Part shown: piece after piece, positions 30,619 through 47,177 of the stretch | Position numbering within the stretch: the stretch's first letter is position 1 | Layout: each line of letters starts with the position of its first letter | From: an uncultured Oscillospiraceae bacterium | GTDB taxonomy: Bacteria > Bacillota > Clostridia > Christensenellales > CAG-138 | Assembly: GCA_964636405.1 (NCBI GenBank) | Contig: CAZWSI010000007.1 | Location: 1,697-65,696 of the forward strand | Direction of reading: 5' to 3' | DNA: 64,000 nucleotides | Translations under genes and position numbers: made by a program | The notes under the pieces: model-generated | What the model saw: the letters and a program-made list of their open reading frames with translations, nothing else | Told to the model about the DNA's origin: nothing | The model's database searches: none

Positions 30619-31560
30619 ATGTTTTCCTGCGTGCGCAGCCATGGGTTGAGTGGGCTAACCGGCTTTCCCGTGCGCGTCGAAACGGACGTGTCAAACGGCC
30701 TCCCCGCCTTCGACGTGGTGGGCTTGCCCGACGCGGCCGTAAAGGAATCACGCGAACGCGTGCGCGCCGCCATGAAGAACGCGGGCTTCGTGTTCCCCGC
30801 CGCGCGCATTACGGTCAATCTCTCGCCTGCCGACATGCGCAAGGAGGGCAGCGTATACGACCTTCCCATCGCCGTTTCGCTGCTTGCCGCGTCCGGCCAG
30901 CTTCCGCAAAAGGAGCTGATGGATATCGTGTTCTTAGGCGAGCTTGCGCTCGACGGCGCGGTTCGGCCCATCGCGGGCATTTTGCCCATGGTCATCGACG
31001 CGGCGGCTGGCGGCGCGCGGCGCTTTGCCGTGCCGTGCGGAAACGCGGAGGAGGCCGCCTGTGCGGCCGGCGCCGAGGTGCTGCCTGTGCCGACCCTGCG
31101 CGCGCTTGTGGAGCATATGAACGGCGCTTCGCCCATTGCGCCCGGGCAATCGCGCGTTTGGCGCGGCGACGAGCTTATCTACGGCGCGGATTTTGCGGAT
31201 ATCAAGGGCCAGCAGGGGGCCAAGCGCGCCGCCGAGGTAGCGGTCGCGGGCGGGCACAATCTGCTGCTGATCGGCACGCCCGGCTCCGGCAAAACGATGC
31301 TTGCGCGCAGAATCCCGTCCATTCTTCCCGAGCTTAGCTATGAGGAAGCGCTGGAGATCACCAAAATTCATTCCATCGTGGGCGCGACCAAGGGTTGCGG
31401 ACTCGTGCGGGAGCGGCCCTTTCGCGCGCCCCATCACGGCGCGTCGTCGGCGGCCATGGTGGGCGGCGGCGCGCGGGCGCTGCCGGGCGAAATCAGCCTT
31501 GCGCATTACGGCGTTCAATTACAACCATGCTCGACATGCTGGGGATTGATGATTGCTTGA
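30619..31560 (+). pseudogene. comM: comM/yifB (Mg-chelatase-like competence ATPase), 5' part, interrupted after nt 31514
   Basis: Lon-like N-domain and Walker A GTPGSGKTM. Homology runs to ...GEISLAHYGV, then switches to unrelated sequence and a stop at 31560. The missing LFLDELPE... continues at 46550. Confidence 0.85.
31509..31514. repeat. left copy of the 6-bp direct repeat CGGCGT flanking the island
   Basis: Identical hexamer at 46544-46549; both lie on the comM reading frame break. Confidence 0.7.
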
Positions 31561-31585
31561 AAAGTGCCTAAAATTGGCACTTTTT
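31561..31585 (+). terminator. hairpin with T-run at the left edge of the island
   Basis: AAAGTGCC (31561-31568) / GGCACTTT (31576-31583), 7-nt loop, followed by TT. Confidence 0.5.
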
Positions 31586-31796
31586 CCCTACTGTGACGCT
31601 GGCTATCCACAGTTTAGGACGTGTGATTTAAGGCAAACAAGCTAATCTGCTGCTGTATTCGCGCAAAAACGGGGTGCATTTTGGCCGAAAAGTACAGCAC
31701 TGAATGTACTGTTTGGCAAAATGGTAACAATTTGACGAAACAGAAAAGTTGATATTCGTTTCGCGTATGGAGAAGACGAAAGGCGGATTATTGATA

Positions 31797-31826
31797 CTGA
31801 CAACTGCATAGCCGGTGTGGTATAAT
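31797..31826 (+). promoter_or_regulatory. putative promoter of the methyltransferase operon
   Basis: CTGACA (31797-31802), 18-bp spacer, TGg-TATAAT extended -10 (31818-31826); about 50 bp upstream of the first ORF. Confidence 0.5.
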
Positions 31827-31877
31827 CTAATATCGACACATTTTGTCATGTAACACATATTTTTGAGGAGATAGGCT

Positions 31878-32066
31878 ATGTTAGTATTCACAACAAAAAT
31901 ACCTCTAAAAGCCGATACTACGCAAAAACAATGTGTAGAGTTGTTTATTAAGTGGGTTTCAGATGCGTACCAGTATCCGTTTGCTTATCATGACTTTGCG
32001 GAATATGATTGCGAAGGACATCAGGACTTGACTATGCTCTGCACACATTTGATGGAGAAAAGGTAG
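31878..32066 (+). CDS. 62-aa hypothetical protein, first gene of the methyltransferase operon
   Basis: GAGGAG 7 nt upstream of the ATG; stop is 2 nt before the methyltransferase ATG; no recognisable motif. Confidence 0.4.
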   Translation: MLVFTTKIPLKADTTQKQCVELFIKWVSDAYQYPFAYHDFAEYDCEGHQDLTMLCTHLMEKR

Positions 32067-32068
32067 CT

Positions 32069-33265
32069 ATGGCAAAAATCGACGGACTAACTAATGCGAA
32101 ACATAATAAAAAGGATGAATTCTATACACAATATGATGTAATCCAAGATGAGATTAATGGATATTTAGAATTCGATGAGAATACATTTCGAGGTAAGACA
32201 GTACTACTTCCCTGCGACGATCCGGAATGGAGCAACTTTACACGCTTTTTTGCACAAAATTTTGAGACCTTAGGACTCAGAAAACTGATTTCCACTAGTT
32301 ATGCTCCAAATAGTAACAAAAACAGAAATCATCAGTACTCTCTTTTTGATATATCGGAGAATATGGAGAGTCCTGGTGATACGAGTGAAACAAGAGGGCG
32401 CATTTTCATTCTTGAGAGAGAGGCCAATAGTTCACGCAAGGTAGATATCAATGATTTGGAATGGTCATACCTTGATGGCGATGGCGATTTTCGAAGCTCT
32501 GAGGTTAATGAGCTATGCGATGAAGCCGATGTTGTGATTACAAACCCGCCCTTTTCACTATTTAAGGAGTTTTTTCAGTGGCTTATTCGTAAGAAGAAAC
32601 TATTTCTAATCATTGGCAGTCAGATGTCAATTACATATAGCGAGGTTTTTCCTTTAATTCAAGCAAACAAGGTTTGGTTAGGGCCGTCAATTCATAGTGG
32701 CGATAGAGAATTTCGAGTGCCGGATGATTATCCATTAAAAGCAGTTGGAAACAGAATTGATAGTTATGGAAATAAGTATATTCGTGTTAAGGGAGTAAGA
32801 TGGTTTACGAACCTTGATCACGGTCGTCGACACCAACCTTTGGAATTGATGACGATGGCAGATAACATCAAATACAGCAAACATAAGGAAGTGCGTGGTG
32901 TTGGCTATATCAAATATGATAATTACGATGTGATAGAAGTTCCATATACGGATGCTATACCTAAAGACTATTTGGGGATAATGGGTGTGCCGCTTACTTT
33001 TCTTGATAAGTATAACCCACAGCAATTTGACATTATTGGAAGCTCACAAACAGGATGTCACCCTGATTCAATGGTTCTTAGGAGTTATAAGGATTACAAG
33101 GGATACAAGCAAAACGGCAGCTTAACAGGAAGAACAGGCAGTACATGTGGGCATAACCCGATGATCCTGAAGAATGACGGTATTCACGATTACTATATGA
33201 ATAGTGAGGGAAGGACTGTGCAATCGGGTAACAGCAGGATATTTATTAGAAAGAGGGAAGAATAA
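32069..33265 (+). CDS. N6-adenine DNA methyltransferase, EcoRI-methylase-like family
   Basis: DEFYT motif near the N-terminus, VLLPCDD, catalytic VITNPPFS; start ATG 32069 (MAKIDGL) after GGAGAAAAGG. Confidence 0.8.
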   Translation: MAKIDGLTNAKHNKKDEFYTQYDVIQDEINGYLEFDENTFRGKTVLLPCDDPEWSNFTRFFAQNFETLGLRKLISTSYAPNSNKNRNHQYSLFDISENMESPGDTSETRGRIFILEREANSSRKVDINDLEWSYLDGDGDFRSSEVNELCDEADVVITNPPFSLFKEFFQWLIRKKKLFLIIGSQMSITYSEVFPLIQANKVWLGPSIHSGDREFRVPDDYPLKAVGNRIDSYGNKYIRVKGVRWFTNLDHGRRHQPLELMTMADNIKYSKHKEVRGVGYIKYDNYDVIEVPYTDAIPKDYLGIMGVPLTFLDKYNPQQFDIIGSSQTGCHPDSMVLRSYKDYKGYKQNGSLTGRTGSTCGHNPMILKNDGIHDYYMNSEGRTVQSGNSRIFIRKREE

Positions 33266-34440
33266 TGGATACGACGTTGCGTACCGATATAACCGTTGAG
33301 GAAGTGTGTAAAGGCTTTGTATATAATGAATTAGAAGGGAAAGGGCTTTTCGGATTATCGGGTAAACTAGTTATCCAACCTGAATACCAGCGCAACTATC
33401 TATATGCTGAAGCAAAAAAGGAAGAAGCTGTCATCAGATCGGTTTTACGAGGTTATCCGCTTGGCCTTATATATTTTAACAAGGTTGGCGATGAGAAATT
33501 CGAAGTCTTAGACGGCCAACAAAGAATAACTAGCCTTGGACGTTTTATAACTGGCAAGTTTCCTTTGTTTGACAAGAATGGTTTACCCCACTATTTTACT
33601 TCCATGCCTGAAGACCAAGTAAGAATAGTCAATGAAAAGAGACTTACTATATACATTTGCGAGGGAGAGGAAACAGAATTAAAGGAATGGTTTAAAACAA
33701 TCAACATTGAAGGAATTGCATTAAAGCCGCAAGAAATTGCCAATTCGGTTTACTGTGGCCCCTTTGTTACCAAGGCAAAAGAAGAGTTCAGCAATACGCA
33801 CAATGCAAATATTCAGAAATGGGGCGCATATATCAAGGGAAGTGTGAGCCGACAGGACTATTTGCGTGTTGCATTGGAATGGGTCACGAGAAGTCGAGAT
33901 GAAGACGTGATTGGCACATATATGAGCAAGCATCGATATGATAATACTATTTCTGAATTACGGGGATACTTCAGCAGCGTTATTGACTGGGTTTCTGGAG
34001 TGTTTTCTGATGTGAAGTCAGAGATGAGAGGACTAGAATGGGGAAGGCTATATGATGCATATCATTCTACTCCTTATGATCCGGCATATGTATCAACCCA
34101 AGTTCATGCGTTATACGCAGATGACTATGTGCATGATAAAAGGGGTATATTCGAGTATATCTTAGGAGGTTGTACTGACACGAGATTACTCGAAATTCGA
34201 CTATTTGAAGAATCGACAAAAAAAGCCAAGTATACGCAACAGACTGATGCCGCGAAAGCAGCGGGTGAGTCCAATTGCCCTCTTTGCGCCATTGGCCACG
34301 ATGCTAATGCAAAGCGCATATGGAATTTCAATGAAATGGATGCTGATCATGTAACAGCATGGACAAAAGGTGGAGCAACGAGTATTAAGAATTGCCAGAT
34401 GCTATGTAAAACCCATAATCGTGCAAAAGGAAACAAGTAG
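33265..34440 (+). CDS. DUF262 (ParB/Srx-like, GmrSD N-terminal type) domain fused to a C-terminal HNH nuclease
   Basis: IQPEYQRNY and LDGQQRITSLGRF (DUF262 signatures); C-terminal CPLC...DADHVTAWTKGG...NCQMLCKTHNRAKGN (HNH). TAATG overlap with the methyltransferase stop. Confidence 0.8.
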   Translation: MDTTLRTDITVEEVCKGFVYNELEGKGLFGLSGKLVIQPEYQRNYLYAEAKKEEAVIRSVLRGYPLGLIYFNKVGDEKFEVLDGQQRITSLGRFITGKFPLFDKNGLPHYFTSMPEDQVRIVNEKRLTIYICEGEETELKEWFKTINIEGIALKPQEIANSVYCGPFVTKAKEEFSNTHNANIQKWGAYIKGSVSRQDYLRVALEWVTRSRDEDVIGTYMSKHRYDNTISELRGYFSSVIDWVSGVFSDVKSEMRGLEWGRLYDAYHSTPYDPAYVSTQVHALYADDYVHDKRGIFEYILGGCTDTRLLEIRLFEESTKKAKYTQQTDAAKAAGESNCPLCAIGHDANAKRIWNFNEMDADHVTAWTKGGATSIKNCQMLCKTHNRAKGNK

Positions 34441-34476
34441 CACTCGATTGGGAAAGGTAAGTTGGGGGAGAAACAC

Positions 34477-34647
34477 ATGGCCGAGTTTTGCTTAGATTAT
34501 TTGAGAAAGCTGGATAAAAAGGACTACAAAAGATGGCAGGTGCGCCTGTCATTGACAAAGGACTTATGCGAAGGCTGTGGCGAGTGGAAAAGGGTAGTTA
34601 TGGGCTTTCGTGGAGACCGGCCGTGGTTCTTCTGGTGGTGGCGTTGA
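34477..34647 (+). CDS. small Cys-containing hypothetical protein with a Trp-rich tail
   Basis: GGGGGAG RBS before ATG 34477 (MAEFCLD...CEGCGEW...); ends 5 bp from the convergent HIRAN gene. Confidence 0.4.
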   Translation: MAEFCLDYLRKLDKKDYKRWQVRLSLTKDLCEGCGEWKRVVMGFRGDRPWFFWWWR

Positions 34648-34652
34648 CTGCA

Positions 34653-36272
34653 CTATTGTAAGCCGCCGGGAAACTGGATGATATTCCCCTGCGAGGAAAC
34701 AGCCCTTGAGATATAGACGGTAATGGGCGGTTTTCCTTCATAGCATGTCGGATCAACGCCAAGAATCGCATATAGCTTCTCGCCAGCATCCATCAACTGT
34801 GCTAACGGTGGGTTTTCGGCTTTGGGAATATACCCAAGCACATAGCCGTCCTCAGTAGTGACAAGGATTGCATTGCTATCGTATTTATTGTCCGGCTCCC
34901 GTTTAAGAAATAGCGTGTCCCCGTCCTCCAGTACACCGGTGACAACATCCATATCACGGAAAAATGTACCAGCAATTTCTGTGTCTAGGATGGGTTTATC
35001 AGCTACAGACGAGGAAACAGTAATGTCCCCGACATCAACATATCGCTGTTCTTTCTTGTCGTCCACCTTTATACCGAGCAGCCTCTTGATCCGTTTTGCG
35101 ATCTTGGGATCGGGTTCCGTTTCACAAGCCTTCTCCAGCGCCGGGATGACTGCACTCGACCATTGAGCGCGGATCAGACGTAGCGTCGTGATCGCTTCGA
35201 TACGCAAATCCTGAAATCTGGCTGACAGGCAGGAGCGGCATAACTGTTCGCATTCGAATTTGACGGTTTTCCGAGCCTTAAGAAGATAGATGAGCCATAC
35301 ATCCGGGCGGTGTTTAGGGGTAAGTTCATCTTTATCAAGGATTTCCGGCTTCTCCAGCACATCACTTGGGACAACGGACAGAATCCGCTCCGCGATTTCG
35401 GCAGCGTAGTTTTGTGGGTGGTCGATCAGAACAAACTTAGCAATGTCCATATCAAAGGGGTCTCTGTCCAGCATGTGCGAGAATGCCTCAAACGTGGGCA
35501 GCGGGAAGCTGTAATCAAAAGCGTATGAAGTCAGGACTTTGATGATAACGGCGTTGCTCTCTGTGGGTTCGTCCATTTCAGTTATGAGCCGATTCCATCT
35601 GTACTTATCCGAGCGTTGGTACTTCGCGCACTGATCCCGGATAGCGTTCTCATGATCGCTGCTCCAGCCGTTGCTTTTTTGGACATCGTCGCCGGACTGC
35701 TTCCAGAATGGAGTCATGGAATGGTCTATCAGGACAAGCGCGGATAAATCGATAAACTCCTTCACATGCTTCTCTGCCGCAGTCATGTACTTGTCAACGA
35801 GCATCCGACTAACCGCAAATTCCTTTACATCGGTTTCAAGAAAGGCGTATGTGAAAAGGCGGGACAGGGCATAGATACCCAGCTTAACTTCATTGATAAC
35901 AGCGCAGTCACGGGCCAGCATGAGCGCAAATCGGTATAGTTGGTCACGGTCGATTATCACCTCGTCACTGTATGATCTTATGCGACGCAAGAACGCCTTC
36001 GCATAGGTGAACTGCGGAATCATGCTCAAAGCGTTTGACAGTTCCTCAGTTACGATTTGCCGGGAAACGGCTTCAACTAGCAGATCGCAACACACTTTCG
36101 AGAACTTGTCCTGCATATCGCCGGGCATGTCATTCCGGAATAGTGTGTAAGCCACATCATCTTTCCCGGCGTGTAAAGCATCCTGAAATGCATACGGTGT
36201 GCCGGGTGTTGTCTCTAAACACTGGCAGATGAATTGATAAGCACTAATTTGTTTCTCATTTTTATCGCTCAT
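34653..36272 (-). CDS. 539-aa protein: helical (HEAT-like) region plus C-terminal HIRAN domain
   Basis: C-terminus GDTLFLKREPDNKYDSNAILVTTEDGYVLGYIPK matches the HIRAN signature; RIEAITTLRLI...IPALEKACETEPDPKIAKRIKRLLG looks HEAT-like; GGAGG 5 nt before the ATG. Confidence 0.75.
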   Translation of the reverse strand: MSDKNEKQISAYQFICQCLETTPGTPYAFQDALHAGKDDVAYTLFRNDMPGDMQDKFSKVCCDLLVEAVSRQIVTEELSNALSMIPQFTYAKAFLRRIRSYSDEVIIDRDQLYRFALMLARDCAVINEVKLGIYALSRLFTYAFLETDVKEFAVSRMLVDKYMTAAEKHVKEFIDLSALVLIDHSMTPFWKQSGDDVQKSNGWSSDHENAIRDQCAKYQRSDKYRWNRLITEMDEPTESNAVIIKVLTSYAFDYSFPLPTFEAFSHMLDRDPFDMDIAKFVLIDHPQNYAAEIAERILSVVPSDVLEKPEILDKDELTPKHRPDVWLIYLLKARKTVKFECEQLCRSCLSARFQDLRIEAITTLRLIRAQWSSAVIPALEKACETEPDPKIAKRIKRLLGIKVDDKKEQRYVDVGDITVSSSVADKPILDTEIAGTFFRDMDVVTGVLEDGDTLFLKREPDNKYDSNAILVTTEDGYVLGYIPKAENPPLAQLMDAGEKLYAILGVDPTCYEGKPPITVYISRAVSSQGNIIQFPGGLQ

Positions 36273-36316
36273 TTAGGCCTCCACTTGCGTAACCAGTCTT
36301 CACAGCCATCCGCCTG

Positions 36317-36508
36317 CTAAGAGTTGATTTTCGCTAGAATTTGCTTCTGCATATCGAGCAAAGAATCCAGTTTTGCGGATACCACATTCTCAAAGAATGA
36401 GTCGATCCGAGCCAGCTGCTCATGTGCCGAACCTAAACTGGCGCTCGTGTCTTCCATTCGCGCAGCTAAATCTGTTGCCATTTCGAGGATTTTTTCGTTA
36501 TTGGTCAT
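36317..36508 (-). CDS. 63-aa predicted coiled-coil protein
   Basis: ATGA start/stop overlap with the upstream gene; heptad-like Leu/Ala pattern; no known motif. Confidence 0.5.
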   Translation of the reverse strand: MTNNEKILEMATDLAARMEDTSASLGSAHEQLARIDSFFENVVSAKLDSLLDMQKQILAKINS

Positions 36509-36948
36509 CGTTCTGCCTCCCTACGCAACGCATTTGTTATTTCTAAGTAAAGCGGATATAACTGATCTGTCTCTATGAAATTTCCCTTAAGAGAGGCATT
36601 CCATAGATGGGGATTACTGCCTTTACAGAACGAGGCGTAAAACGGGTTCTCGTATCCGACATAAACAGGAGTGCCATCAGGAAACTGATCGCTTGTGATA
36701 TCAACAATCAAGCCAGCATTCTCAAGCCATGCGTGTGATAAGCTACAGCGTTCTTTTTGTATGTATTGATAATCGCCAAGGCCGGAAGCAGCTAGAAAGG
36801 CTCCTAACATGAGCGAAGTGCATCCGCACGTCCCATGCGGAAAGTGCGAAAATGGCAAGTAAATCCGACCAACATCGATGCTCTCAATAGCTTTGCGGAA
36901 TGATAAGGCAGCGGATTTAACTTTTGTTTGATACTCTGAGTCTGTCAT
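36505..36948 (-). CDS. 147-aa protein with Cys-His-Asp arrangement (transglutaminase-like / papain-fold candidate)
   Basis: GTCGCTSLMLGAFL (Cys at helix start), SHAWLE (His) and IVDITSDQF (Asp), in the order and spacing typical of transglutaminase-like cysteine peptidases; ATGA overlaps on both sides. Confidence 0.5.
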   Translation of the reverse strand: MTDSEYQTKVKSAALSFRKAIESIDVGRIYLPFSHFPHGTCGCTSLMLGAFLAASGLGDYQYIQKERCSLSHAWLENAGLIVDITSDQFPDGTPVYVGYENPFYASFCKGSNPHLWNASLKGNFIETDQLYPLYLEITNALRREAER

Positions 36949-37541
36949 GCTGTGGCATACTCCAATTCGGCGATGGTGTTCTGTACAACCTCATTATAAG
37001 GGTTTTGCGGCGAAAGCCAATCATTAATTCTGTCTTGCTGGATCATCACAGGCATCCGAGCATGGATCGACCTGATACTGTCGGCCGCGTCCATCGTTAG
37101 AATAGAGAAACAGGGGATGTGGTCTTTCGATGAACGGATATAGAGGCCAGCCATATAAAGCGGCCCGGATTTGGGTTTTATAGCATATTTGATTTTTTTG
37201 CCGTCTGCCTTTTGCCACTCGTAGTAGCATGAAGCGGGGATCAAACATCGGCGATCATCAATGCTTGTTGCAAACAACGCTTTTTCTGCCGCTGTTTCAC
37301 TCCTCGTATTGAAGACCAGCATGCCACGGGATGGATGAATAAAGCCCCATTTCATTGGGAAGGCATCTGGCTGACGATTCTTTGCGTTTGGAGCGATTAC
37401 AGTGGCGATATTAGTTGGTCGGACTTCTCCGGAAGCGACTAGAGGCACCTGCAAGCTGTCGGCGCGGCGTTGCGCCTCCGCAAAGTAACCGGCTAGTACA
37501 ACATCCGGGTCATCATCTGCGATATAATACCTGCCGCACAT
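36945..37541 (-). CDS. SRAP-domain protein (YedK/HMCES family abasic-site processing protein)
   Basis: N-terminal MCGRY (catalytic Cys2), NTRSET, RCLIPASCYYEW, IHARMPV motifs; GAGGAGG RBS. Confidence 0.85.
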   Translation of the reverse strand: MCGRYYIADDDPDVVLAGYFAEAQRRADSLQVPLVASGEVRPTNIATVIAPNAKNRQPDAFPMKWGFIHPSRGMLVFNTRSETAAEKALFATSIDDRRCLIPASCYYEWQKADGKKIKYAIKPKSGPLYMAGLYIRSSKDHIPCFSILTMDAADSIRSIHARMPVMIQQDRINDWLSPQNPYNEVVQNTIAELEYATA

Positions 37542-37561
37542 GAGAGCCTCCTCTCTTAATC

Positions 37562-38170
37562 CTAACGCGCCGTGAAGTGTTCCACCCTGTCAACCCATTT
37601 CAATGGGATTTCCCACAGTGTTGCCTGTATGATCTGCTCATCTGCACGGCCGTACAAATAATTGTCATCGGCAAGGTCTGTGCTGAAAATGCGTTGCCAG
37701 CTTTCTCTGAGTTCACCTCGAAGCTGAAGCATTGCATCGGTTTGGACGTCAAGGTTCTGCAAATCATGAAAAGTGTAGCCGCACTCTTTGTATTCGCTTT
37801 CAAAGCGCGAATCATCAGCCTCGTTAAGCGGGACGTAATCGCCATTGAACATAATGGTGTACGCATCGAAATTGGACAACACTACAGCGTTGCTTGGCGC
37901 ATTAAAGGTGATGCGTACAAACCTTTCACCTCTCATGCCATGCCCGCTAGAACGCAAATTCGGGCGCGGGTGCTTTTTGCCGCGCCACCAATACCACGCC
38001 CAGACGGGGAAATGTGTACCGGACGGCGGCGGGCCAAGTCGGAGTGTCATCTGCTCTGCCATCCACCGATAACACTCATATAGAGCGCCATCCTCCGGTT
38101 GTGCGAAAGTGAAAGCGTCATTTGCCCGCAGCGATCCCATGCGCTCCATTTCACGGTATCGCCGTATCAT
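37562..38170 (-). CDS. DUF3841-like protein
   Basis: YRWMAEQM...GPPPSGTHFPVWAWYWW... resembles DUF3841. Start uncertain (ATG 38170 or 38149); the 260-aa ORF-track version overlaps the upstream 72-aa ORF. Confidence 0.55.
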   Translation of the reverse strand: MIRRYREMERMGSLRANDAFTFAQPEDGALYECYRWMAEQMTLRLGPPPSGTHFPVWAWYWWRGKKHPRPNLRSSGHGMRGERFVRITFNAPSNAVVLSNFDAYTIMFNGDYVPLNEADDSRFESEYKECGYTFHDLQNLDVQTDAMLQLRGELRESWQRIFSTDLADDNYLYGRADEQIIQATLWEIPLKWVDRVEHFTAR

Positions 38171-38369: not shown

Positions 38370-38520
38370 TTATAGCGCTCCTTTCCGGTAGGTGAACGTG
38401 ATTGAGCCAGTTCCTATGATTTCAACTTCCGTATCACCCTCCACGAGTACAAGCGAAGGCACGACATACCAGTTCGTTTTACACACACATAGGATCGCAC
38501 ACGCTTATGGGTAAACAAAA

Positions 38521-38550: not shown

Positions 38551-38618
38551 TTTTGTTCCGCTCCGCTATGGCCCTCGATATGACCAATAACAGATTTGTT
38601 GTTTGCCTAATGATTCGC

Positions 38619-39526: not shown

Positions 39527-39690
39527 CCGATCTGTTCCGGTTTCGGACGATTCCCGAACTGGAGGTAACCGAGGAGCATGTAATTGTCTGCGATACCGGA
39601 CGCTACCACATCATTTCGGCTGAAAACGTGCGTGATCGTGGCATGTATGTTGAAGTGCTTGCCAAACGAATCGAGGCTGCGCGTGGCTAG
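39493..39690 (+). pseudogene. C-terminal remnant of a phage head-closure / head-tail joining protein
   Basis: ...CDTGRYHIISAENVRDRGMYVEVLAKRIE resembles the C-terminus of head-closure proteins that precede HK97 gp10-like genes; the N-terminal part is absent. Confidence 0.4.
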
Positions 39691-40111
39691 AGTGACGATT
39701 TATCCCGGTAAGGATTTCTTGAAGAAACTGGAGCAGATGCAGGGCGATCTCGATCACGCGATCCCTACGGCTCTGGAGGAGGGCGGAAAACTGGTGCTTT
39801 CTAAGATGCATGGGAAATTGGCGTCTGTTGTTGGTAAGCACACGAAATGGCCGTCACAATCCAGCGGTAAGCTGCTCAAGGCACTGGGCCTTTCACCGGT
39901 GAAAATGAACGATACCGGCAATTTTGATGTGAAGGTTGGTTTCTCCGAGGGGCGGCCACGCAAGAGCAACGCTATGCTTGCCAACATCCTCGAATACGGA
40001 AAGCACGGACAGCCGCCTAAACCCTTCCTAGCGCCCACGAAGTCGCAAGCAAAACAGCCGTGCCTCGATGCGATGGAAGCGGCGTTGAAGAGGGAGTTGG
40101 GTATTAAATGA
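39683..40111 (+). CDS. HK97 gp10-family phage head-tail protein
   Basis: ANILEYGKHGQPPKPFLAPT motif typical of the HK97 gp10 family; GTG 39683 after GAGG. Confidence 0.7.
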   Translation: MARVTIYPGKDFLKKLEQMQGDLDHAIPTALEEGGKLVLSKMHGKLASVVGKHTKWPSQSSGKLLKALGLSPVKMNDTGNFDVKVGFSEGRPRKSNAMLANILEYGKHGQPPKPFLAPTKSQAKQPCLDAMEAALKRELGIK

Positions 40112-40464
40112 GCGTTCTGTCTGACTTAAAGGGGATCGTGACGGCGGCTGGGTTACCTGTGGAAACGGGCAAGTTCAGCGGGAAGGCTCCGGATGAATAT
40201 GCCGTGATCACGCCGCTTTCTGAGCAGTTTGCGCTGCATGCGGATAATGCGCCGGGGATCAACATTGAGGAGTACCGACTCTCCCTGTTTTCCAAGAGTA
40301 ATTACAACGTAAAGAAATGGCGGTTGGTACGGGCGTTATTGAGCGCTGATTTTACGATTACCGACCGCCAATATCTGCTGCCGGACGATATGTACGAACA
40401 GGACTCCGGCTATCACCACTACGCCATAGATGTGGCGAAAGCCTATGAACTGGAGGAGGAATAA
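40108..40464 (+). CDS. phage tail completion / tail terminator-like protein
   Basis: Position between gp10-like and major tail genes, ATGA overlap with gp10; assigned by synteny only. Confidence 0.45.
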   Translation: MSVLSDLKGIVTAAGLPVETGKFSGKAPDEYAVITPLSEQFALHADNAPGINIEEYRLSLFSKSNYNVKKWRLVRALLSADFTITDRQYLLPDDMYEQDSGYHHYAIDVAKAYELEEE

Positions 40465-40467
40465 AAT

Positions 40468-41343
40468 ATGGCTACAATCGGCCTTGATAAAATGTATTTT
40501 GCTCCAATTACGGAGGATGCGAATGGCAACGAAACCTACGGAACACCGGAGAAGCTGGCAAAAGCCATGACCGTCGAGATGGAGATCGAGGTGCTGGAGG
40601 CAACGCTGTATGCCGATGACGGCCCGGCGGAGAATGTTAAGGAGTTTGGCACCGGTAAGATCACACTGGGTGTGGATGACATCGGCATCAATGCTGCTGA
40701 AAAGCTCACTGGCGCACAGATCGACGAAAACCATGTGGTGATCTCTCAGAGCGAGGGCGGCGGTAAGCCGGTTGCACTGGGTTTTCGGGCTAAGAAGAGC
40801 AACGGCACTTATCGCTACTACTGGCTCTATCGGGTCGTCTTTGGTATTCCCGCAACGAACCTGACCACCAAGGGTGAGGAGATTACGTTCTCCACACCGA
40901 CCATTGAGGGTACGATCCTGCGTCGAAACAAGCTGGATGGCAACAGTCGGCATCCGTGGAAATCGGAGGTCAACGAGGATGATGTTACGGTTCCTCGCAG
41001 CGTGATCACCGGCTGGTATTCGCAGGTGTATGAACCCACGTTTGCAGCACCGGTGACGCTGTCGATTACTGCACAGCCGCAGGATGCGGAGGTGACAGAG
41101 GGCGCGATCACGGGTTCTATTGCGGTCACAGCCGCTGCTACCGGTGCAGTTCCGACCTATCAATGGTATCGGAATCAGACCGATAGCAATGTAGGTGGCA
41201 CAGCGGAACAGGGCGCGACGAATGCGAGTATGGCGATTCCCGTTGATCTCACATCCGGCGCGTACTATTTCTACTGTGTTGTAACGGCCGGGACGCAGAC
41301 ATTAGCGTCTGATCCTTGCACGATCACTGTGGCAGCTGGCTAA
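40468..41343 (+). CDS. phage major tail protein (phi13-like) with a C-terminal Ig-like decoration domain
   Basis: MATIGLDKMYFAPITEDANGNETYGTPEKLAKA N-terminus typical of phi13-family major tail proteins; C-terminal ...PTYQWYRNQ...YYFYCVV Ig-like segment. Confidence 0.8.
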   Translation: MATIGLDKMYFAPITEDANGNETYGTPEKLAKAMTVEMEIEVLEATLYADDGPAENVKEFGTGKITLGVDDIGINAAEKLTGAQIDENHVVISQSEGGGKPVALGFRAKKSNGTYRYYWLYRVVFGIPATNLTTKGEEITFSTPTIEGTILRRNKLDGNSRHPWKSEVNEDDVTVPRSVITGWYSQVYEPTFAAPVTLSITAQPQDAEVTEGAITGSIAVTAAATGAVPTYQWYRNQTDSNVGGTAEQGATNASMAIPVDLTSGAYYFYCVVTAGTQTLASDPCTITVAAG

Positions 41344-41354
41344 AGGAGGCAACT

Positions 41355-41771
41355 ATGTTGGATCAAGACAGATGCGCTGATATCACCATCGGCGGTCAGA
41401 CCTATCACATGGTGCTAACAACGCTTGCTACCAAGGAAATCAGCAAGCGATATGGCGGGTTGGAACAGCTCGGTAATAAGCTGCTTATGACGGAGAATTT
41501 CGAACTGGCGCTGGATGAAGTGGTGTTTCTGATCACGCTTTTGTGTAATCAGGGCATTATGATCGAGAACCTCGAAAACCCGACGGCTCCCCGTGGGCTT
41601 CTCACGGAACAAATGGTGGAACTGTTGACTACGCCAACAGACCTCATGCTTTGTAAGGATGCGATCATTGCAGCGATGCTGAAGGGCACGAAACGCTTTG
41701 TGGAGAGCGAATCGGGTAAAACAAAAAACGTGTTGGACGGGCAGACGACGGAGAGTCCTTTGCCCGATTGA
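41355..41771 (+). CDS. phage tail assembly chaperone (G-like, zero-frame product)
   Basis: AAAGGAGG RBS, position after the major tail gene, slippery site near the 3' end. Confidence 0.7.
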   Translation: MLDQDRCADITIGGQTYHMVLTTLATKEISKRYGGLEQLGNKLLMTENFELALDEVVFLITLLCNQGIMIENLENPTAPRGLLTEQMVELLTTPTDLMLCKDAIIAAMLKGTKRFVESESGKTKNVLDGQTTESPLPD

Positions 41772-41932
41772 TCTTTATCGGGGTTTCGCTGCTAGGCCGG
41801 GAGGAGCGTACTGTTTGGCTTATGCCGATTGGTGCGCTCCTCGATCAGTGGGAAGCCTACAAGCATTTCCACGGGATCGCCAAGCAGAAAGTCGTTCTGG
41901 CCATTGATGAATTGATCCCCAGCGGGATATAG
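41355..41932 (+). CDS. tail assembly chaperone GT-like frameshift fusion (join 41355..41729, 41729..41932)
   Basis: The -1 frame extension encodes ...LGREERTVWLMPIGALLDQWEAYKHFHG..., resembling T-segments of siphovirus chaperones. Confidence 0.55.
41723..41729 (+). promoter_or_regulatory. -1 programmed ribosomal frameshift slippery heptamer A_AAA_AAC
   Basis: Zero-frame codons ACA AAA AAC put the heptamer in the X_XXY_YYZ phase. The -1 frame is open from here to TAG 41930-41932. Confidence 0.6.
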
Positions 41933-41937
41933 ACGTC

Positions 41938-42180
41938 CTACTGGATGATCGCCTCAAGGTTTTCAAACAACGGGGAGTCAAAGAACTCCCGCATGGAAAT
42001 GTCCAGAGCATCGCAGATTTTCTGTAATGAAATGACACCGGGGTTCTGGCTCTTGGTGTTTAGCATGCTATAGATTGTCGAGGAAGACATGCCCGCAAGA
42101 TTGGCAAGTGCATTGACGGTCAGCTTCTCCTTCTTGCACAGTTCGGCGATTCTTGCTGCGACAGCGCCTTTTGCATCCAT
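41938..42180 (-). CDS. XRE-family HTH transcriptional regulator (80 aa)
   Basis: IAELCKKEKLTVNALANLAGMSSSTIYSMLN HTH; GGGAGGA RBS. Confidence 0.8.
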   Translation of the reverse strand: MDAKGAVAARIAELCKKEKLTVNALANLAGMSSSTIYSMLNTKSQNPGVISLQKICDALDISMREFFDSPLFENLEAIIQ

Positions 42181-42196
42181 ACAAACATCCTCCCAC

Positions 42197-42297
42197 TTGC
42201 GATATATCGCAACTAAAGTGTACGGAAAGCACGGTTTTCATGTTCGGGATATATCCCGAAACGCGAAAACTGTGTTACACTTATAGCGATATATCGC
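42197..42297. promoter_or_regulatory. divergent promoter/operator region with three GATATATC-core palindromes
   Basis: Perfect palindromes TTGCGATATATCGCAA (42197-42212), TTCGGGATATATCCCGAA (42243-42260) and GCGATATATCGC (42286-42297); TACACT -10-like hexamers on both strands. Confidence 0.55.
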
Positions 42298-42315
42298 AAA
42301 CTTGGAGGTGCAAGC

Positions 42316-42561
42316 TTGGTAAAACAGCTGGATGATTTGGAAATACAGCGCGTGATTCGGAAGACGGCCGCAGAGACCGGTTCAACGCCACAGCAGGTGC
42401 GCCGAAATACTGAGGAAATGCTGGCAGAGAGCCGCGCTTGCACTGATCCCAAGGCGAAGGCCGCATGGGCAGAAATCCCTTGTAACGGTGATGTTCCAAC
42501 GTTGGAAGAGGTGTTCCGTTATCTCGCGGAACGAATCGATAAGCAGATGAGCTACAAGTAA
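42316..42561 (+). CDS. 81-aa hypothetical protein divergent from the XRE gene (Cro-like position)
   Basis: GGAGG 6 nt before TTG 42316; followed by a strong terminator; no firm family assignment. Confidence 0.45.
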   Translation: MVKQLDDLEIQRVIRKTAAETGSTPQQVRRNTEEMLAESRACTDPKAKAAWAEIPCNGDVPTLEEVFRYLAERIDKQMSYK

Positions 42562-42590
42562 GCGAAACCAAATACCGAGAATTTACATAA

Positions 42591-42617
42591 GCGTCCCTTC
42601 GGGGGCGTTTTTCTTTT
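42591..42617 (+). terminator. rho-independent terminator (UUCG tetraloop)
   Basis: GCGTCCC-TTCG-GGGGCGT stem-loop with two G-U pairs, followed by TTTTTCTTTT. Confidence 0.7.
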
Positions 42618-42641
42618 GCGCTTCGGAAGGGGGTGTAGGAT

Positions 42642-43028
42642 ATGGCTTCTGACTTTGGCCTGAAAATCGGGCTGGAGGGTGAGCGCGAGTTCAAAACGGC
42701 ATTGAAGGAAATCAACCAGCAAATGAAGCTGCTGGGGTCGGAAATGAAGCTCGTGCAGTCTCAGTTTGGGAAAAACGAGAAAAGCGCTTCCTCGCTTACC
42801 GCACAGAACAAGGTGCTGACTAAGCAAATCGAAGAGCAGAAAACGAAGATCGAAATGCTCCGCACGGCTATGGTTACGCCAATGTCGATAGGGTCTATTT
42901 TGCCGTCTCCGTTCCAATCGATCATTTCGGTAAAGCCTCCTTGTTGCAGAACTTTAGAAATGCCGCCTTTGCTTTGTTCAGCGAACAGATCACGGCATCG
43001 ATGCTTTCCACATTCGAAAAAGACATAA
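42642..43028 (+). pseudogene. N-terminal remnant (~76 codons) of a phage tail tape measure protein
   Basis: MASDFGLKIGLEGEREFKTALKEINQQMKLLGSEMKLVQSQFG... is typical of tape-measure N-termini; the coiled-coil character is lost after about nt 42870. Confidence 0.5.
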
Positions 43029-43215
43029 TAGCGGGTGCCCGTGCAAAACGCGCATCGTCCATTTCGCGACCGTCACGGCTTTCCCAAACGCCGATTTTGC
43101 GAGGGGCGGGCGCGTTTTCTAACACGAGTATGCTGTGGTCATCGTCATAGGCAACGTGGAGATCAACATCTCCCTGCCCAAACTCCAGCCATGTTTGACC
43201 TTGTGTATGGATCAT
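42922..43215 (-). CDS. 97-aa hypothetical protein (last gene of the repressor operon)
   Basis: 10-bp gap to the upstream ORF; no known motif. Confidence 0.4.
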   Translation of the reverse strand: MIHTQGQTWLEFGQGDVDLHVAYDDDHSILVLENAPAPRKIGVWESRDGREMDDARFARAPAIMSFSNVESIDAVICSLNKAKAAFLKFCNKEALPK

Positions 43216-43225
43216 AGTAACTCCT

Positions 43226-43498
43226 TTAGGCTACTTTCGCTTCAACGAACCAGCGACCGATGGTATTCCCACAGATATTGGTGCTGCGCTCGAAATACAG
43301 ATACCGCTGCTGGCCGTTGACAGTGATGGTGTATCGATCACCTTGCCCGCCAACCTTCATAGCGGCAGCTTGCCGAATATCCGATACCCGGTCGATTTCA
43401 TAGCTGCGGCCATCTTCCCACACGATCTTTTCTGGGATCAGCTTTCCGGAGGAATCAAAACGTGCGTGTACTTCAACATAGGTCTTTACAATCTTCAT
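43226..43498 (-). CDS. 90-aa hypothetical protein
   Basis: 22-bp gap to the upstream ORF; beta-rich (KIVWEDGRSYEIDRV...GRWFVE); no family name assigned. Confidence 0.45.
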   Translation of the reverse strand: MKIVKTYVEVHARFDSSGKLIPEKIVWEDGRSYEIDRVSDIRQAAAMKVGGQGDRYTITVNGQQRYLYFERSTNICGNTIGRWFVEAKVA

Positions 43499-43520
43499 AT
43501 TCGTTCCCTCACGTTACTGG

Positions 43521-43748
43521 TTATAAGCCTTCGTCAACAGGTAGGATCGTCCGGTTCATTTGCTCACAGGGGCGGAGCCAGCCCTTGTTTACAAGGTTAT
43601 GGATATGGACATGAATGGTGGATGCGGAATGTAGGCCAATACCGTCAGCGATCTCACGCATACTGGGAGAGAAACGCTTTTCCTTCCGGTATTCGAGTAT
43701 ATAGTCATACACATCTTGCTCACGTTTTGTCATTTCGATTCTCTCCAT
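43521..43748 (-). CDS. stand-alone LexA-type winged-helix DNA-binding domain protein (no S24 domain)
   Basis: TKREQDVYDYILEYRKEKRFSPSMREIADGIGLHSASTIHVHIHNLVNKGWL aligns by eye with the LexA N-terminal domain; GGAAAGGAG RBS before ATG 43748. Confidence 0.65.
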   Translation of the reverse strand: MERIEMTKREQDVYDYILEYRKEKRFSPSMREIADGIGLHSASTIHVHIHNLVNKGWLRPCEQMNRTILPVDEGL

Positions 43749-43819
43749 AAAGCGCTCCTTTCCGAACAGCATACGCCATTTCTACCATTATGCTATTTCA
43801 CCTGTCCCATATACAGGTC

Positions 43820-44548
43820 TTAGCGAGGATACACGACTCTGCCGTAAATCTTCGTCTCGTTGTATTCCGTAATCGGAATGGGTTTGTACTTCGTATTGTG
43901 CGAAACAAGGAATGTGCCGTCTTCCGTGCGGCGAAACTCTTTGACAAAAGCATTCCCGTCAAGGAAGAAGATGCCGATCTCGCCATTTTCAAGCGTGGGC
44001 TGCATTCGTACCCAGATTTCCTGACCGTCCTCCAGCGTCGGCTCCATTGAATCGCCGCAGACATGAAGACCAAAGGTAGCGCACTCTGGCACATCGTCGG
44101 GGACTTCGACCATTTCATAGGAATCGCTGTCAAGGAATTGCCCAGTACCGGCCGCAGCGCCAATATCGAACATGGGGGCGGTACGCTTTCGCAAAGGTGC
44201 GACATTGTCTCTGATCTTAACCGGGGCGTATAGACCGCTTGCGATCAGCAGCTTCTTGTATTCCGCCAGCTTCTCAGCGCCTTCATGATTGAGCGAGTAT
44301 TCCAATTCGGACAGATCGCCGGTACCGAATATGCTGTAAACATCTTTTATCCCGTAGATATGGCATAGCCCTACAAACTGGTCAATAGCCGGATTGTTAA
44401 GCCCGGTCTCCCAACGGCTTACCTGTGCTTTGGTGGTTGGCATACCCAGTTCATTCAACCTTGCAGCTATGTCCTGCTGCAAAAAGCCATGGCTTTTTCG
44501 CAGCATTCGGAGGACGTCACTGTACTTTTTGTCCATCGCGTCATCCAC
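43820..44548 (-). CDS. XRE HTH + S24 peptidase repressor (phage CI / LexA-like)
   Basis: N-terminal HTH (GFLQQDIAARLNELGMPTTKAQVSRWETG); C-terminal S24 Ser/Lys dyad (VCGDSMEPTL ... FVKEF). Confidence 0.85.
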   Translation of the reverse strand: MDDAMDKKYSDVLRMLRKSHGFLQQDIAARLNELGMPTTKAQVSRWETGLNNPAIDQFVGLCHIYGIKDVYSIFGTGDLSELEYSLNHEGAEKLAEYKKLLIASGLYAPVKIRDNVAPLRKRTAPMFDIGAAAGTGQFLDSDSYEMVEVPDDVPECATFGLHVCGDSMEPTLEDGQEIWVRMQPTLENGEIGIFFLDGNAFVKEFRRTEDGTFLVSHNTKYKPIPITEYNETKIYGRVVYPR

Positions 44549-44606
44549 CTCCTATGGCTGCATTCTACTATGGCCGAAACAAGTTTGCAATAGAAAATCG
44601 CAAAAA

Positions 44607-44620
44607 CGAACACTTGTTGC
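44607..44620. promoter_or_regulatory. Cheo-box-like (Firmicutes LexA) operator candidate
   Basis: CGAACACTTGTTGC versus consensus CGAAC-N4-GTTCG, in the divergent region between the repressor and the polymerase fragment. Confidence 0.4.
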
Positions 44621-44673
44621 ATTACAAAAACTAGAAAAACGTGTTTTAATGTGCGTGAAAGGGGGGACATGGT

Positions 44674-45264
44674 ATGAGAGCGATATTGCACAGCGACTTG
44701 AATTGCTTTTATGCGTCAGTGGAGATGATGCTCGATCCCTCCTTGCGTGGAAAGGCGGTAGCGGTCTGCGGTTCTACCGAGAATCGGCACGGTATTGTGC
44801 TGGCAAAATCACAGCTTGCAAAACAGGCGGGCGTCAAAACCGGTATGGCAAACTGGGAGGCACGGGAAGCCTGTCCCGGGTTGATCGTCGTACCGCCGCA
44901 GTACGATCAGTACCTGAAGTATTCGGCACTTACCCGCGAGATCTATTATCGGTATACGGATTTGGTCGAACCTTACGGCATGGACGAGTGTTGGATCGAC
45001 GTCACAGGATCGCAGCGTGCTTACGGAACGGCGATGGAAATTGCGGAAGAAATCCGAAAAGCCACGCGGGAGGAGCTTGGGCTGACGGTCAGCATTGGTG
45101 TGAGCTTCAATAAGATTTTTGCCAAATTAGGCTCGGATATGAAGAAGCCTGACGCGATCACGGAGATCACGCCGGAGAACTTCCGTGAGAAGGTATGGCC
45201 GTTGCCAGCGTCAGACTTATTGTACCCTTCGAAATCAAAGATGCCGCCGCCGCGGTTTCGATAA
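44674..45264 (+). pseudogene. Y-family DNA polymerase (DinB/UvrX-like), N-terminal ~183 codons only
   Basis: ILHSDLNCFYASVE, MDECWIDVT, SIGVSFNKIFAKLGSDMKKPD and VWPLPASDLLY match the palm/fingers; homology stops near 45224 and a stop follows at 45264. Confidence 0.8.
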
Positions 45265-45734
45265 GGGCAGCAGCGCCGAAGCATTTTGCGACAGAGATTA
45301 TTCCGCAGATGCTGGTGCCCCAGAAGGAGGCAGATGTATATCCGGCTGTTATGCGCTTGATAGAAGATGATCATGATATGGCTGTGAAAACGAAGAAAGA
45401 ACTGCGGGGACTGCTTGAAGAAGGGAAAAAGGCTGATTTCCTAGCTCAATCATTTTTATATGCTATCACCAAAGACAACCGGGCACCGGCTTCCGAGCCG
45501 CCCACGCTGAGTGATAACCTTGCAAACTTACAGTCAATTCTTTCGAAGCTGTCCAAGCCTGTGGCTTTGGTGCCACCTGATGAATTGATGTCGCATGAGA
45601 TGATTTATGTGCAGGCGTTACCCAGTATCTGCATTCACTTGCGGTATCAGCATGAATGCCCTCCCTTCTGCACTGAAAGCGCGTTTCATAAGCGATCACC
45701 TCCTTCCCGGCGTATGATAGCGCATATTGGATAG
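45195..45734 (+). pseudogene. orphan ORF, probably a fragment of an unrelated gene joined to the polymerase remnant
   Basis: Open frame without a convincing RBS; the internal segment MAVKTKKELRGLLEEGKKADFLAQSFLYAI looks protein-like, but its ends are low-complexity. Confidence 0.25.
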
Positions 45735-45748
45735 ATGCGCAGCATATT

Positions 45749-45766
45749 TTCGGGATATATCGTGAA
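45749..45766. promoter_or_regulatory. fourth, imperfect copy of the GATATATC-core operator
   Basis: TTCGGGATATATCGTGAA differs at 2 positions from the palindrome at 42243-42260. Confidence 0.4.
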
Positions 45767-45987
45767 CACGTTTGCGGCATTAGCAATTCTGGGTTTCAAA
45801 TAGTGCAAAAGAGGTGTATAGGCAAGTAAAGAAACAGTATATAAATACATGGTATTCGTGGTAATCAATAACGCAAAAATTGGCTGTAGGTGTTGTGGTA
45901 AACCAAAAACAACACACACACTTACATATTGCATATTGGCGTATAGCGTGCTAGTCTGTGCATATAGAAACGAAAGGGGGAGCGACA

Positions 45988-46254
45988 ATGACCGGAAGTT
46001 TTGAACGGATTTGGCAAGCAATACTCGCACATGAGGGAGAGACGTTTTACACCCTTGGCCGTAGACTGGAGTTCACCTATCAGGTGTTTCCCGATGAAAT
46101 TGTTTGCAGTCGTGCGAAAACTTGGAGACTGACCAAGAGCAACTTTGAAAAGGCATACGAGTGCATCGACACAGTAACCGCGACGGAGTTCAGCAAGACA
46201 ATAATGGGATCATCGTATGTGAAAGCCATTTTGAAAGATTCCCGGATTTACTGA
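45988..46254 (+). CDS. 88-aa hypothetical protein
   Basis: AAAGGGGGAG RBS before ATG 45988 (MTGSFERIWQAIL...); followed by a terminator. Confidence 0.5.
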   Translation: MTGSFERIWQAILAHEGETFYTLGRRLEFTYQVFPDEIVCSRAKTWRLTKSNFEKAYECIDTVTATEFSKTIMGSSYVKAILKDSRIY

Positions 46255-46291
46255 TTCAGCTTGCCTCTAACATAGATAGTCCTACCTTGGA

Positions 46292-46320
46292 AAAGGCTCT
46301 CAACGACGAGGGCCTTTTTC
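46292..46320 (+). terminator. rho-independent terminator
   Basis: AAAGGCTCTC / GAGGGCCTTT stem (one G-U pair), 6-nt loop, T-run. Confidence 0.65.
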
Positions 46321-46543
46321 TGTGACATATTGTGCAATACACTATTACATTGCACTTGGCAAACTGGAAATCGACTGCTATAGTAGCTTATAAATACTGC
46401 ACCTAAGAAACTGAATATGGGCTGTGATCCATGAGGCGTGGTTGCTGGACAGACGCTTTTCACGGGGTAGAACACAACATATAGGGGTATCGCTGAAAAG
46501 GGCTTCACAAAATGCTGTGATAAAAGGGTAGTCGTAAGTAGCG

Positions 46544-46549
46544 CGGCGT
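46544..46549. repeat. right copy of the 6-bp direct repeat CGGCGT
   Basis: Identical to 31509-31514. Confidence 0.7.
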
Positions 46550-47177
46550 GCTCTTTCTTGACGAGCTCCCGGAATACGGGCGCGATGTGCTGGAGGCGCT
46601 TCGACAGCCGCTGGAGGACGGAAGAATCACCGTCAGCCGCGCGCAGGCGAGCGCGACCTATCCCGCCGAATTTGTGCTGGTCGCGGCCATGAACCCATGC
46701 CCCTGCGGCAATTACGGCTCCCGCGTCAATCCCTGCCGTTGCACGGCGGCGCAGATCACCCGCTATCAAAACCGCATCTCCGGCCCGCTGCTCGACCGCA
46801 TCGATATTCAGGTTGAAATGCCCGAGGTGGGCTATCAGGAGCTTTCCGATCTGAAGCGCGGCGAGCCATCCGCCGCCGTACGCGCGCGTGTCAACGCGGC
46901 GCGAAGCAGGCAGCGCGCGCGGTTTCTTGCAGAGGGGATCGTGTGCAATGCGCAAATGAACAGCGCCCAGACCAAAAAATATTGCGCGCCGGACGCGGAA
47001 GCCGAGCGCCTCTTGCAACGCGCGTTTACGCAGCTGCGGCTGTCCGCGCGCGCGTACCAGCGCATTTTAAAGGTCGCGCGCACCATTGCGGATCTGGAAG
47101 AAAGCGAAAGCGTTTTGCCTATGCATTATGCGGAAGCCATCCAGTACCGCTCGCTGGATATGCGCCGGGAGGGATAG
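46550..47177 (+). pseudogene. comM: comM/yifB, 3' part
   Basis: LFLDELPEYGRDVLEALRQPLEDGRITVSRA... continues the AAA+ module and C-terminal domain exactly where the 5' part breaks off. Confidence 0.85.

Follow-up and report, generated by a model that had tools for sequence, protein, structure and literature searches.

In a 64,000-nucleotide (nt) stretch of DNA from an uncultured Oscillospiraceae bacterium (GenBank assembly GCA_964636405.1, contig CAZWSI010000007.1, positions 1,697 to 65,696; hereafter the window), the gene comM is found in two pieces separated by about 15 kb. The question raised by this locus is what kind of element lies between the pieces, how it came there and whether it can still leave. 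An earlier reading made from the sequence alone (the sequence-only reading) had proposed that comM was split by an insertion bounded by a 6-bp repeat, which was thought to be either tyrosine-recombinase-like or target-duplicating. The analysis presented here shows that a 15-kb foreign segment interrupts comM directly upstream of dprA, and that excision of this segment in silico restores the gene. In our judgement the island is probably a degraded ('grounded') descendant, devoid of a large serine recombinase (LSR), of a temperate-phage-like element whose serine integrase targeted comM.

Rejoining of the flanks restores comM

The 5′ part of comM was located at 30619..31514 on the plus strand (codons 1-298 plus 2 nt), where its last residues are ...GEISLAHYG(V) and the Walker B motif LFLDE would come next. 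The 3′ part lies on the same strand at 46550..47177; it starts from the last base of the Val codon, continues with LFLDE and proceeds to the stop codon. The gene is broken at 31514/31515 and at 46549/46550, and a copy of the hexamer CGGCGT stands at each break, at 31509..31514 (attL) and at 46544..46549 (attR), both on the plus strand. When position 31514 is joined to 46550 the junction reads ...CAT TAC GGC GTG CTC TTT..., and 896 + 628 = 1524 nt become a single open reading frame (ORF) of 507 amino acids plus stop. These coordinates and sequences, the hexamers and the 1524-nt ORF included, had been given by the sequence-only reading and were all found to be correct.

In Pfam, the rejoined protein matched ChlI (2.5e-46), Mg_chelatase (1.1e-95, profile positions 1-206 of 207) and Mg_chelatase_C (1.3e-32) from end to end. 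It can be seen that the ComM/YifB architecture (ChlI, an AAA+ domain with Walker A and B, and Mg_chelatase_C, about 500 amino acids) is complete in the rejoined protein, while neither fragment alone has the full set. The alignment with homologues of 506-508 amino acids covers 99-100% of the length, and the junction is crossed without a gap. All of the 127 residues invariant among 120 homologues are kept, and deviations were found at 2 of 79 near-invariant positions, intact homologues having a mean of 1.7. Since the conservation of the rejoined ComM matches that of intact homologues, the interruption is recent relative to decay by point mutation, or else the gene was intermittently restored until recently.

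Between the junctions lies the inserted island (31515..46543, ~15.03 kb). The G+C content of the island is 0.39-0.55, against 0.60-0.70 in the flanks, and the drop (from 0.62-0.70) lies exactly between both junctions. The left end of the island (31515..31560, plus strand) gives the truncated ComM 14 foreign codons (QLQPCSTCWGLMIA) and a stop at 31560. The attachment (att) site is protein-coding, and is not a tRNA or tmRNA gene. The hexamer CGGCGT occurs 53 times on the plus strand of this GC-rich window, so the repeat alone is weak evidence.

comM is uninterrupted in all 80 of the related genomic loci retrieved. In the two closest, L001 and L071 (Oscillospiraceae metagenome-assembled genomes, 73-75% identical), the region reads GCGCATTACGGCGTGCTG; CGGCGT is present once, in the codons of HYGVLFLDE, the Walker B region. 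By tblastn, the 5′ part of the window's comM falls at 10001-10894 of L001 with the 3′ part immediately after it, the two halves mapping to the adjacent coordinates 10894 and 10898. The order PMT-type glycosyltransferase-GtrA-comM-dprA-topA-trmFO-hslU is kept in both of these uninterrupted loci. Relatives with an intact comM, which the sequence-only reading had proposed to look for, do exist; no uninterrupted allele was found from the same species.

The junctions were also recovered in Logan contigs, which are assembled independently from single sequencing runs. In run SRR8925725, one contig (L281) equals the window from 31200 to 35872 at 100% identity and crosses attL, and another (L291) equals 45618-46809 at 100% and crosses attR. 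Because G+C content, uninterrupted relatives, synteny and independent Logan contigs agree, the split of comM is genuine and not an assembly chimera.

The right arm is shared with elements encoding large serine recombinases

Pfam was run on all large ORFs of the island and then on the 94 remaining stop-to-stop fragments of at least 45 amino acids, at E up to 1. Neither a recombinase of any class nor a transposase was found in these ORFs and fragments, the only extra match being Phage_HCP. The same set gave no match to PF00589-type Phage_integrase, none to rve/DDE, TnsA, AAA-TnsC or TniQ, and none to Resolvase PF00239 plus Recombinase PF07508, with or without Zn_ribbon_recom. When the 64-kb window was searched by tblastn with both LSRs of the relatives described below (407 and 467 amino acids), nothing was found.

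Elements in other samples share the conserved right arm of the island (45618..46543). This arm holds the 5′ region of a lost serine-recombinase gene (45618 to ~45719, minus strand), a gene for 88 amino acids which is nearest to attR (P0121, 45988-46254, plus strand), and the element end ...GGGTAGTCGTAAGTAGCG. The single match of P0121 in the protein collection is an identical sequence, which is present on contigs from several other samples. On those contigs ~290 bp separates the P0121 gene from a protein of 407 amino acids (counted from ATG) with Resolvase and Recombinase domains; after this LSR come a gene for 137 amino acids and then a second LSR of 467 amino acids, which has Zn_ribbon_recom as well. 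The last 930 bp of the island are 92-100% identical to element ends in other samples (L284-L293), the figures of 92-97% including comM flank.

Seven LSR-bearing contigs align with the window from exactly 45618. Leftward of this position they read ...TGGCAAAAAAG, corresponding to ATG GCA AAA AAG divided after its A, which is the start of the LSR gene, whereas the window has unrelated sequence. Because similarity stops at the A of the ATG, the window has lost the LSR gene from its first codon on, with the upstream region kept. A separate Logan contig (L292) equals the window from 45195 to 46373 at 100% identity and spans this LSR-less junction. The breakpoint, 45617/45618, falls on the A of the LSR start codon, and on its other side an ORF of 179 amino acids (45195-45734) is truncated.

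A further LSR, 84% identical (P0126, locus L306), lies in a prophage together with a second LSR and a lysin with NlpC/P60 and PG_binding domains; positions 9909-10001 of this locus match window 45719-45618. The prophage adjoins a comM 3′ fragment followed by dprA-topA-trmFO-hslVU, and its end reads ...GGTCAATCAGCG followed directly by CGGCGT (AGCG, then CGGCGT). The LSR family found via the shared end comprises 707 proteins at E <= 1e-100, and its attB lies in the highly conserved Walker B sequence. LSR relatives in viral_contigs (56-75% identity) were in loci with no comM fragment and no DNA similarity to the island.

Another LSR, P0156, is 76% identical to the comM-targeting one. Its contexts (L308-L311) lie elsewhere in the chromosome, a few genes away from nrdD-nrdG, and the cargo beside LSRs of this type varies: two N6/N4 methyltransferases with a ResIII helicase (type III restriction-modification-like), an OLD-type ATPase/TOPRIM protein with a UvrD helicase (Gabija-like), a Fic protein, or phage capsid and D5-primase genes. 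These contexts indicate that a moderately diverged LSR uses a different target with swappable defence cargo.

Site specificity and position of the crossover

The insertion is site-specific, the same attB position being used across host alleles. In at least four further comM alleles, the junction with the element end ...GTAGTCGTAAGTAGCG / ...AAAAGGGTAGTCGTAAGTAGCG falls on the same nucleotide (CGGCGTGCTGTTTCTCGATGAA, CGGAGTGCTGTTTTTAGATGAA, CGGCGTGCTGTTTCTGGACGAG and CGGTGTGCTCTTTTTAGACGAA; contigs L284, L285, L287/L290 and L289). In this respect the sequence-only reading, which had placed a site-specific insertion directly upstream of dprA, was borne out.

In other hosts the attR hexamer is CGGAGT or CGGTGT, and its fourth base (C, A or T) tracks the host allele. 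At attL, the base before the hexamer is of the host type (A, vs G in the element). Because the fourth base at attR and the preceding base at attL are both host-type, the crossover would fall within CGG, as CG or GG (31509-31511 in the attL copy). LSRs cut both partners at a central dinucleotide, and a two-base crossover is expected of a serine recombinase.

The other possibility raised by the sequence-only reading, a target-duplicating insertion, was not upheld. The last 17 nt of one contig (L288; ENA ERZ15185900 NODE_66212) read ...AGCG CGGCGT TCGTTTACACC, with no comM after the hexamer. Because this attP-like junction already carries CGGCGT, and the fourth base at attR is host-derived, the hexamer is not a target-site duplication. 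CGGCGT is the shared att core, and the remaining ...CGT identity is a coincidence of the codon usage of this host. When the 11-nt extension of L288 is compared with the left end of the window's island, TCAATTACAACC, 9 of 12 aligned positions match. The end of L288 could represent an attP junction, left by excision of an element or by elements in tandem; these 11 nt are a hint of it. The exact 20-22-nt end sequences of the island were absent from viral_contigs.

The island is a remnant

A siphovirus-type structural module is present as a fragment at 39436..42870 (plus strand; Phage_HCP in Pfam, on a fragment; PHROGs 5, 78, 88, 2115 and 10613). It opens with what is left of a head-completion gene, its 3′ part, continues with the genes for tail completion/Neck1, tail terminator, major tail protein and tail chaperone, and breaks off after ~76 codons of a tape-measure gene. 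The viral relative that best matches the tail fragment, L086, has a tape-measure ORF of 836 amino acids, preceded by ORFs of portal and capsid size; the island lacks all of these. Pfam, run on large ORFs and fragments, and PHROGs revealed no gene for a terminase, portal, capsid, lysin or replication function in the island. The island fails as a functional temperate phage, since its packaging, head, tail, lysis and replication modules are incomplete. Because phage genes are present only as fragments and there is no recombinase, the island is a remnant, and not a functional phage or transposon; that the element has decayed and can no longer move on its own had been missed by the sequence-only reading. 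By megablast, the whole island had no match in the phage collection, and no family reached its gathering score when Rfam was run on the 64,000-nt window.

Between the tail chaperone and the tape-measure stub, at 41772-42641, there is an antisense XRE-type helix-turn-helix regulator (41938..42180, minus strand; HTH_26, 1.5e-10) together with an ORF of 81 amino acids. A homologous insert occupies the same place in L086 (8646-8928). The latter also has a stretch of 163 nt, whose copy in the window stands at 34476-34638, beside the HIRAN gene described below. This looks like a moron-type insert which is common to the lineage and has been rearranged in the window.

Two repressor-type genes follow on the minus strand: one encodes a protein with a LexA DNA-binding domain (43521-43772; LexA_DNA_bind, 3.3e-13), the other an XRE and S24 peptidase repressor (43820-44548; Peptidase_S24, 8.6e-22). 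Viral relatives of this pair (43521..44548) are L083-L085. A truncated Y-family DNA polymerase of 196 amino acids (44674..45264, plus strand) consists of the catalytic domain only (IMS, 4.3e-45, positions 2-148 of 148), without the C-terminal domain.

On the left side of the island, an EcoRI-like adenine DNA methyltransferase (32009..33265, plus strand; Pfam EcoRI_methylase, 4.5e-119; PADLOC MTase_II, 6.9e-89) overlaps a protein with DUF262 (GmrSD_N) and HNH nuclease domains (33265..34440, plus strand; GmrSD_N, 4.4e-19; HNH, 2.7e-06; PADLOC REase_II, 3.8e-85, profile positions 9-372 of 372). By these matches the two genes form a predicted type II restriction-modification pair. The G+C content of the region with this pair (31515-34500) is 0.39-0.42, the lowest of the island, the rest being at 0.45-0.55; judged from this, the pair may have entered the remnant separately and later. 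Three minus-strand genes stand next to it: one for a protein of 539 amino acids with a C-terminal HIRAN domain (34653..36272; 7.5e-16, and a weak PADLOC match to PDC-M03B), one for a YedK-like SOS-response-associated peptidase (SRAP; 36945..37541; 1.1e-39), and one for a DUF3841 protein (37562..38344; 3e-29).

Flanking genes and outward transcription

Directly downstream of comM are dprA (47179-48324, plus strand; DNA_processg_A, 1.3e-71) and topA (48343-50442, plus strand; Topoisom_bac, 1.5e-126). Upstream of comM, window 26241-30615 encodes a membrane glycosyltransferase of 1296 amino acids (GT87 and PMT/PMT_2/PMT_4TMC) and a GtrA-family protein, both syntenic with L001 and L071.

The genes at the attR end, that is, the 88-amino-acid gene of the window and two cargo genes of L306, face outward to the comM 3′ fragment, dprA and topA. 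An outward-facing sigma-70-like site, TTGGCA-17-TGnTATAGT, was noted at 46356..46384 (plus strand, 10 of 12 matches), directed toward the same three genes. In the scan of this region for promoters, 3 sites were found vs 1.8 +/- 1.4 in shuffles, which is not better than shuffled sequence, and the terminator scan was likewise no better than shuffled sequence. It is plausible that transcription out of the right arm spares dprA and topA a polar effect; the promoter evidence for it is weak.

Proposed history of the locus

The descent of the island from a recombinase-bearing element would have begun with site-specific integration by an LSR into the Walker-B-coding stretch of comM, at an attB of the form ...GCGCATTA-CGGCGT-GCTCTTTC.... 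This integration would have left comM as two stubs, a 5′ one of 298 codons with a foreign tail of 14 codons and a 3′ one of 209 codons. Later deletions or replacements would have taken the recombinase gene or genes from the start codon on, along with the lysis, head and most tail genes. Left behind would be the restriction-modification pair, the HIRAN, SRAP and DUF3841 genes, the tail fragment, the repressor-type genes and the truncated Y-family polymerase. Both att junctions remain intact, yet the island would be unable to excise itself, and comM would be locked in two pieces in this lineage. As the split passes through the AAA+ domain, the helicase function by which ComM supports the recombination of transforming DNA is expected to be abolished.

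Several points weigh against this history. The breakpoint exactly at the start codon of the LSR is unusually tidy for a random deletion, and may reflect module exchange instead. No recombinase-bearing element was recovered with both ends, and the only hint of kinship at the left end (31515 onward) is the 11 nt of L288. In the reconstructed attP, dyad symmetry about the core reached 10 of 22 positions, which is tied with an unrelated site and not above chance. A same-species uninterrupted comM allele was not found among 5.8 billion proteins searched, the best intact ComM being 76% identical. All evidence comes from metagenome assemblies, and the short relatives have low coverage. In addition, the role of ComM in transformation was shown in Gram-negative bacteria, and not in Clostridia, as cited in PMC11472951.

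Other searches bear on the same locus. Neither the comM 5′ fragment nor topA gave a match when its exact protein was looked up, contigs found via dprA end 220-230 bp before attR, and a metagenome scan with GGNGTTCAATTACAACC returned 120 loci, 0 of them with comM or either island end, all being chance matches. L288 and the window agree fully in the right arm (100% identity) but not in the putative left end. The left end of the island may come from a related, non-identical element, which, as a matter of speculation, would fit a tandem integration followed by internal deletion.

Alternative explanations

The first alternative is that the island is a cis-mobilizable defence island which never had a recombinase of its own, or has no more need of one, and relies on co-circulating relatives, whose LSR and directionality factor would excise and integrate it in trans, so that comM would be a reversible switch. 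Intact attL and attR would permit such movement. The right arm is 100% identical to that of the LSR-bearing L286, L288 and L293, of which L293 has at least 9 nt of the same comM allele, and the rejoined ComM is without sign of pseudogene decay. The break of L291 exactly at 45618 in SRR8925725 could even reflect both variants in one sample. However, neither an attP formed from the two ends of the window's island nor an empty same-species comM site was found, no LSR is encoded within the 64-kb window, and the fragmented phage genes point to decay and not to a streamlined hitchhiker. We therefore regard this alternative as unlikely. If it were true, the island would be a live defence-gene shuttle, and comM would be reversibly switched in this species, not dead.

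A transposon making a 6-bp target-site duplication, either Tn7-like (cf. Tn6022/AbaR in the comM of Acinetobacter) or another DDE element, would account for the perfect 6-bp direct repeat flanking the insert, and attachment of Tn7-like elements in comM is on record (PMC11406308, PMC11472951). Against this, the ORFs and fragments gave neither a transposase nor a TnsABC or TniQ domain, and the island lacks significant terminal inverted repeats: by eye, 7 of 10 positions agree between the ends at an offset of 2 nt, and the repeat search lists no terminal pair. The host-dependent fourth base of attR is by itself compatible with duplication; taken with the CGGCGT of the attP-like end of L288, it indicates that the element carries its own core. 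Sister elements also encode LSRs at the right end, and a transposon is very improbable here.

Equally improbable is a prophage or island of the tyrosine-integrase type which later lost its integrase, as the sequence-only reading had suggested. A tyrosine-recombinase overlap region of 6-8 bp would agree with the short direct repeat found at either end, and a phage-type repressor and tail genes are present. Nevertheless, the island contains no Phage_integrase-type match (PF00589), and in the elements that have the same end the neighbouring recombinases are of the Resolvase/Recombinase (LSR) type. The identity of attP and attB in other hosts is CGG and then GT, too short and interrupted for a typical tyrosine overlap, and L306 and L307, in which ~9 kb and ~7.5 kb of element sequence were read, point to serine recombinases only.

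An assembly error that fused a mobile element with two comM fragments in one metagenome contig is hardly credible: the window is apparently metagenome-derived and the related contigs are short and of low coverage, but independent single-run Logan assemblies reproduce attL (L281), attR (L291) and the 45618 breakpoint (L292), each at 100%, and a chimera would not yield two comM halves that complement each other exactly in frame. The Tn7-like, tyrosine-integrase and assembly-artefact explanations were accordingly rejected, given the lack of such genes or terminal repeats, the serine recombinases in sister elements and the three independently assembled junctions.

Comparison with known systems

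Gene-splitting LSR elements are familiar in the Firmicutes: skin in sigK and SPbeta in spsM of B. subtilis, and phi10403S, with a serine integrase, in comK of Listeria. Like the island, skin is a decayed prophage inside a coding sequence, and its excision restores the ORF; unlike the island, it keeps SpoIVCA and excises under developmental control. In the island the recombinase is lost, and no evidence of programmed excision was found.

The statement of the sequence-only reading that comM is a recurrent target of mobile elements agrees with the literature (PMC10083194, PMC9203015, PMC11406308, PMC11472951). According to Durrant et al. 2022 (PMC10083194), 12.4% of the LSRs predicted to be site-specific have Mg-chelatase/ATP-dependent-protease homologues as targets, and LSR targets are enriched in competence genes. 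The LSR elements described there resemble the island in that the same target gene family is hit inside the coding sequence and a competence-associated gene is disrupted. Close relatives of the island also have LSRs (Resolvase and Recombinase, with or without Zn_ribbon_recom) beside the att site, and in the window the att core is short and excision in silico restores the gene exactly. In contrast, the copy in the window has no LSR gene, only its 5′ region and fragments of phage genes.

In Wolbachia, PMC9203015 describes serine-recombinase prophages (phage WO, sr1WO) that integrate in an Mg-chelatase gene, the halves of which lie on either side. There, as here, att sites were inferred against an uninterrupted allele; the differences are another bacterial phylum, another phage lineage and a recombinase that is generally kept. 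In A. baumannii, Tn6022/AbaR and other elements break comM inside its Mg-chelatase (AAA+) domain, and these inserts frequently bring defence systems with them (PMC11406308, PMC11472951). Common to that case and to the island are the AAA+ domain of comM as the site that is hit, frequent defence cargo, and an expected reduction of transformation. However, Tn6022/AbaR is Tn7-like, with TnsABC/TniQ-type targeting and a 5-bp duplication, and resides in Gammaproteobacteria, whereas the island has no transposition genes and its relatives use serine recombinases.

The island adds an example from an uncultured Oscillospiraceae-like gut bacterium in which a mobile element disables a transformation-linked gene beside dprA. 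This fits the idea, put forward in PMC11472951 and PMC10083194, that mobile elements disrupt competence genes to avoid removal by recombination. It also shows how an insertion becomes permanent, when loss of the LSR strands a restriction-modification-bearing remnant inside the gene. The LSR family with its defined attB could join recombinase catalogues, and current understanding is left unchanged. Integration of LSR elements into the comM family is already well described, and the island works likewise, but without the encoded LSR that defines that group, its gene having been deleted.

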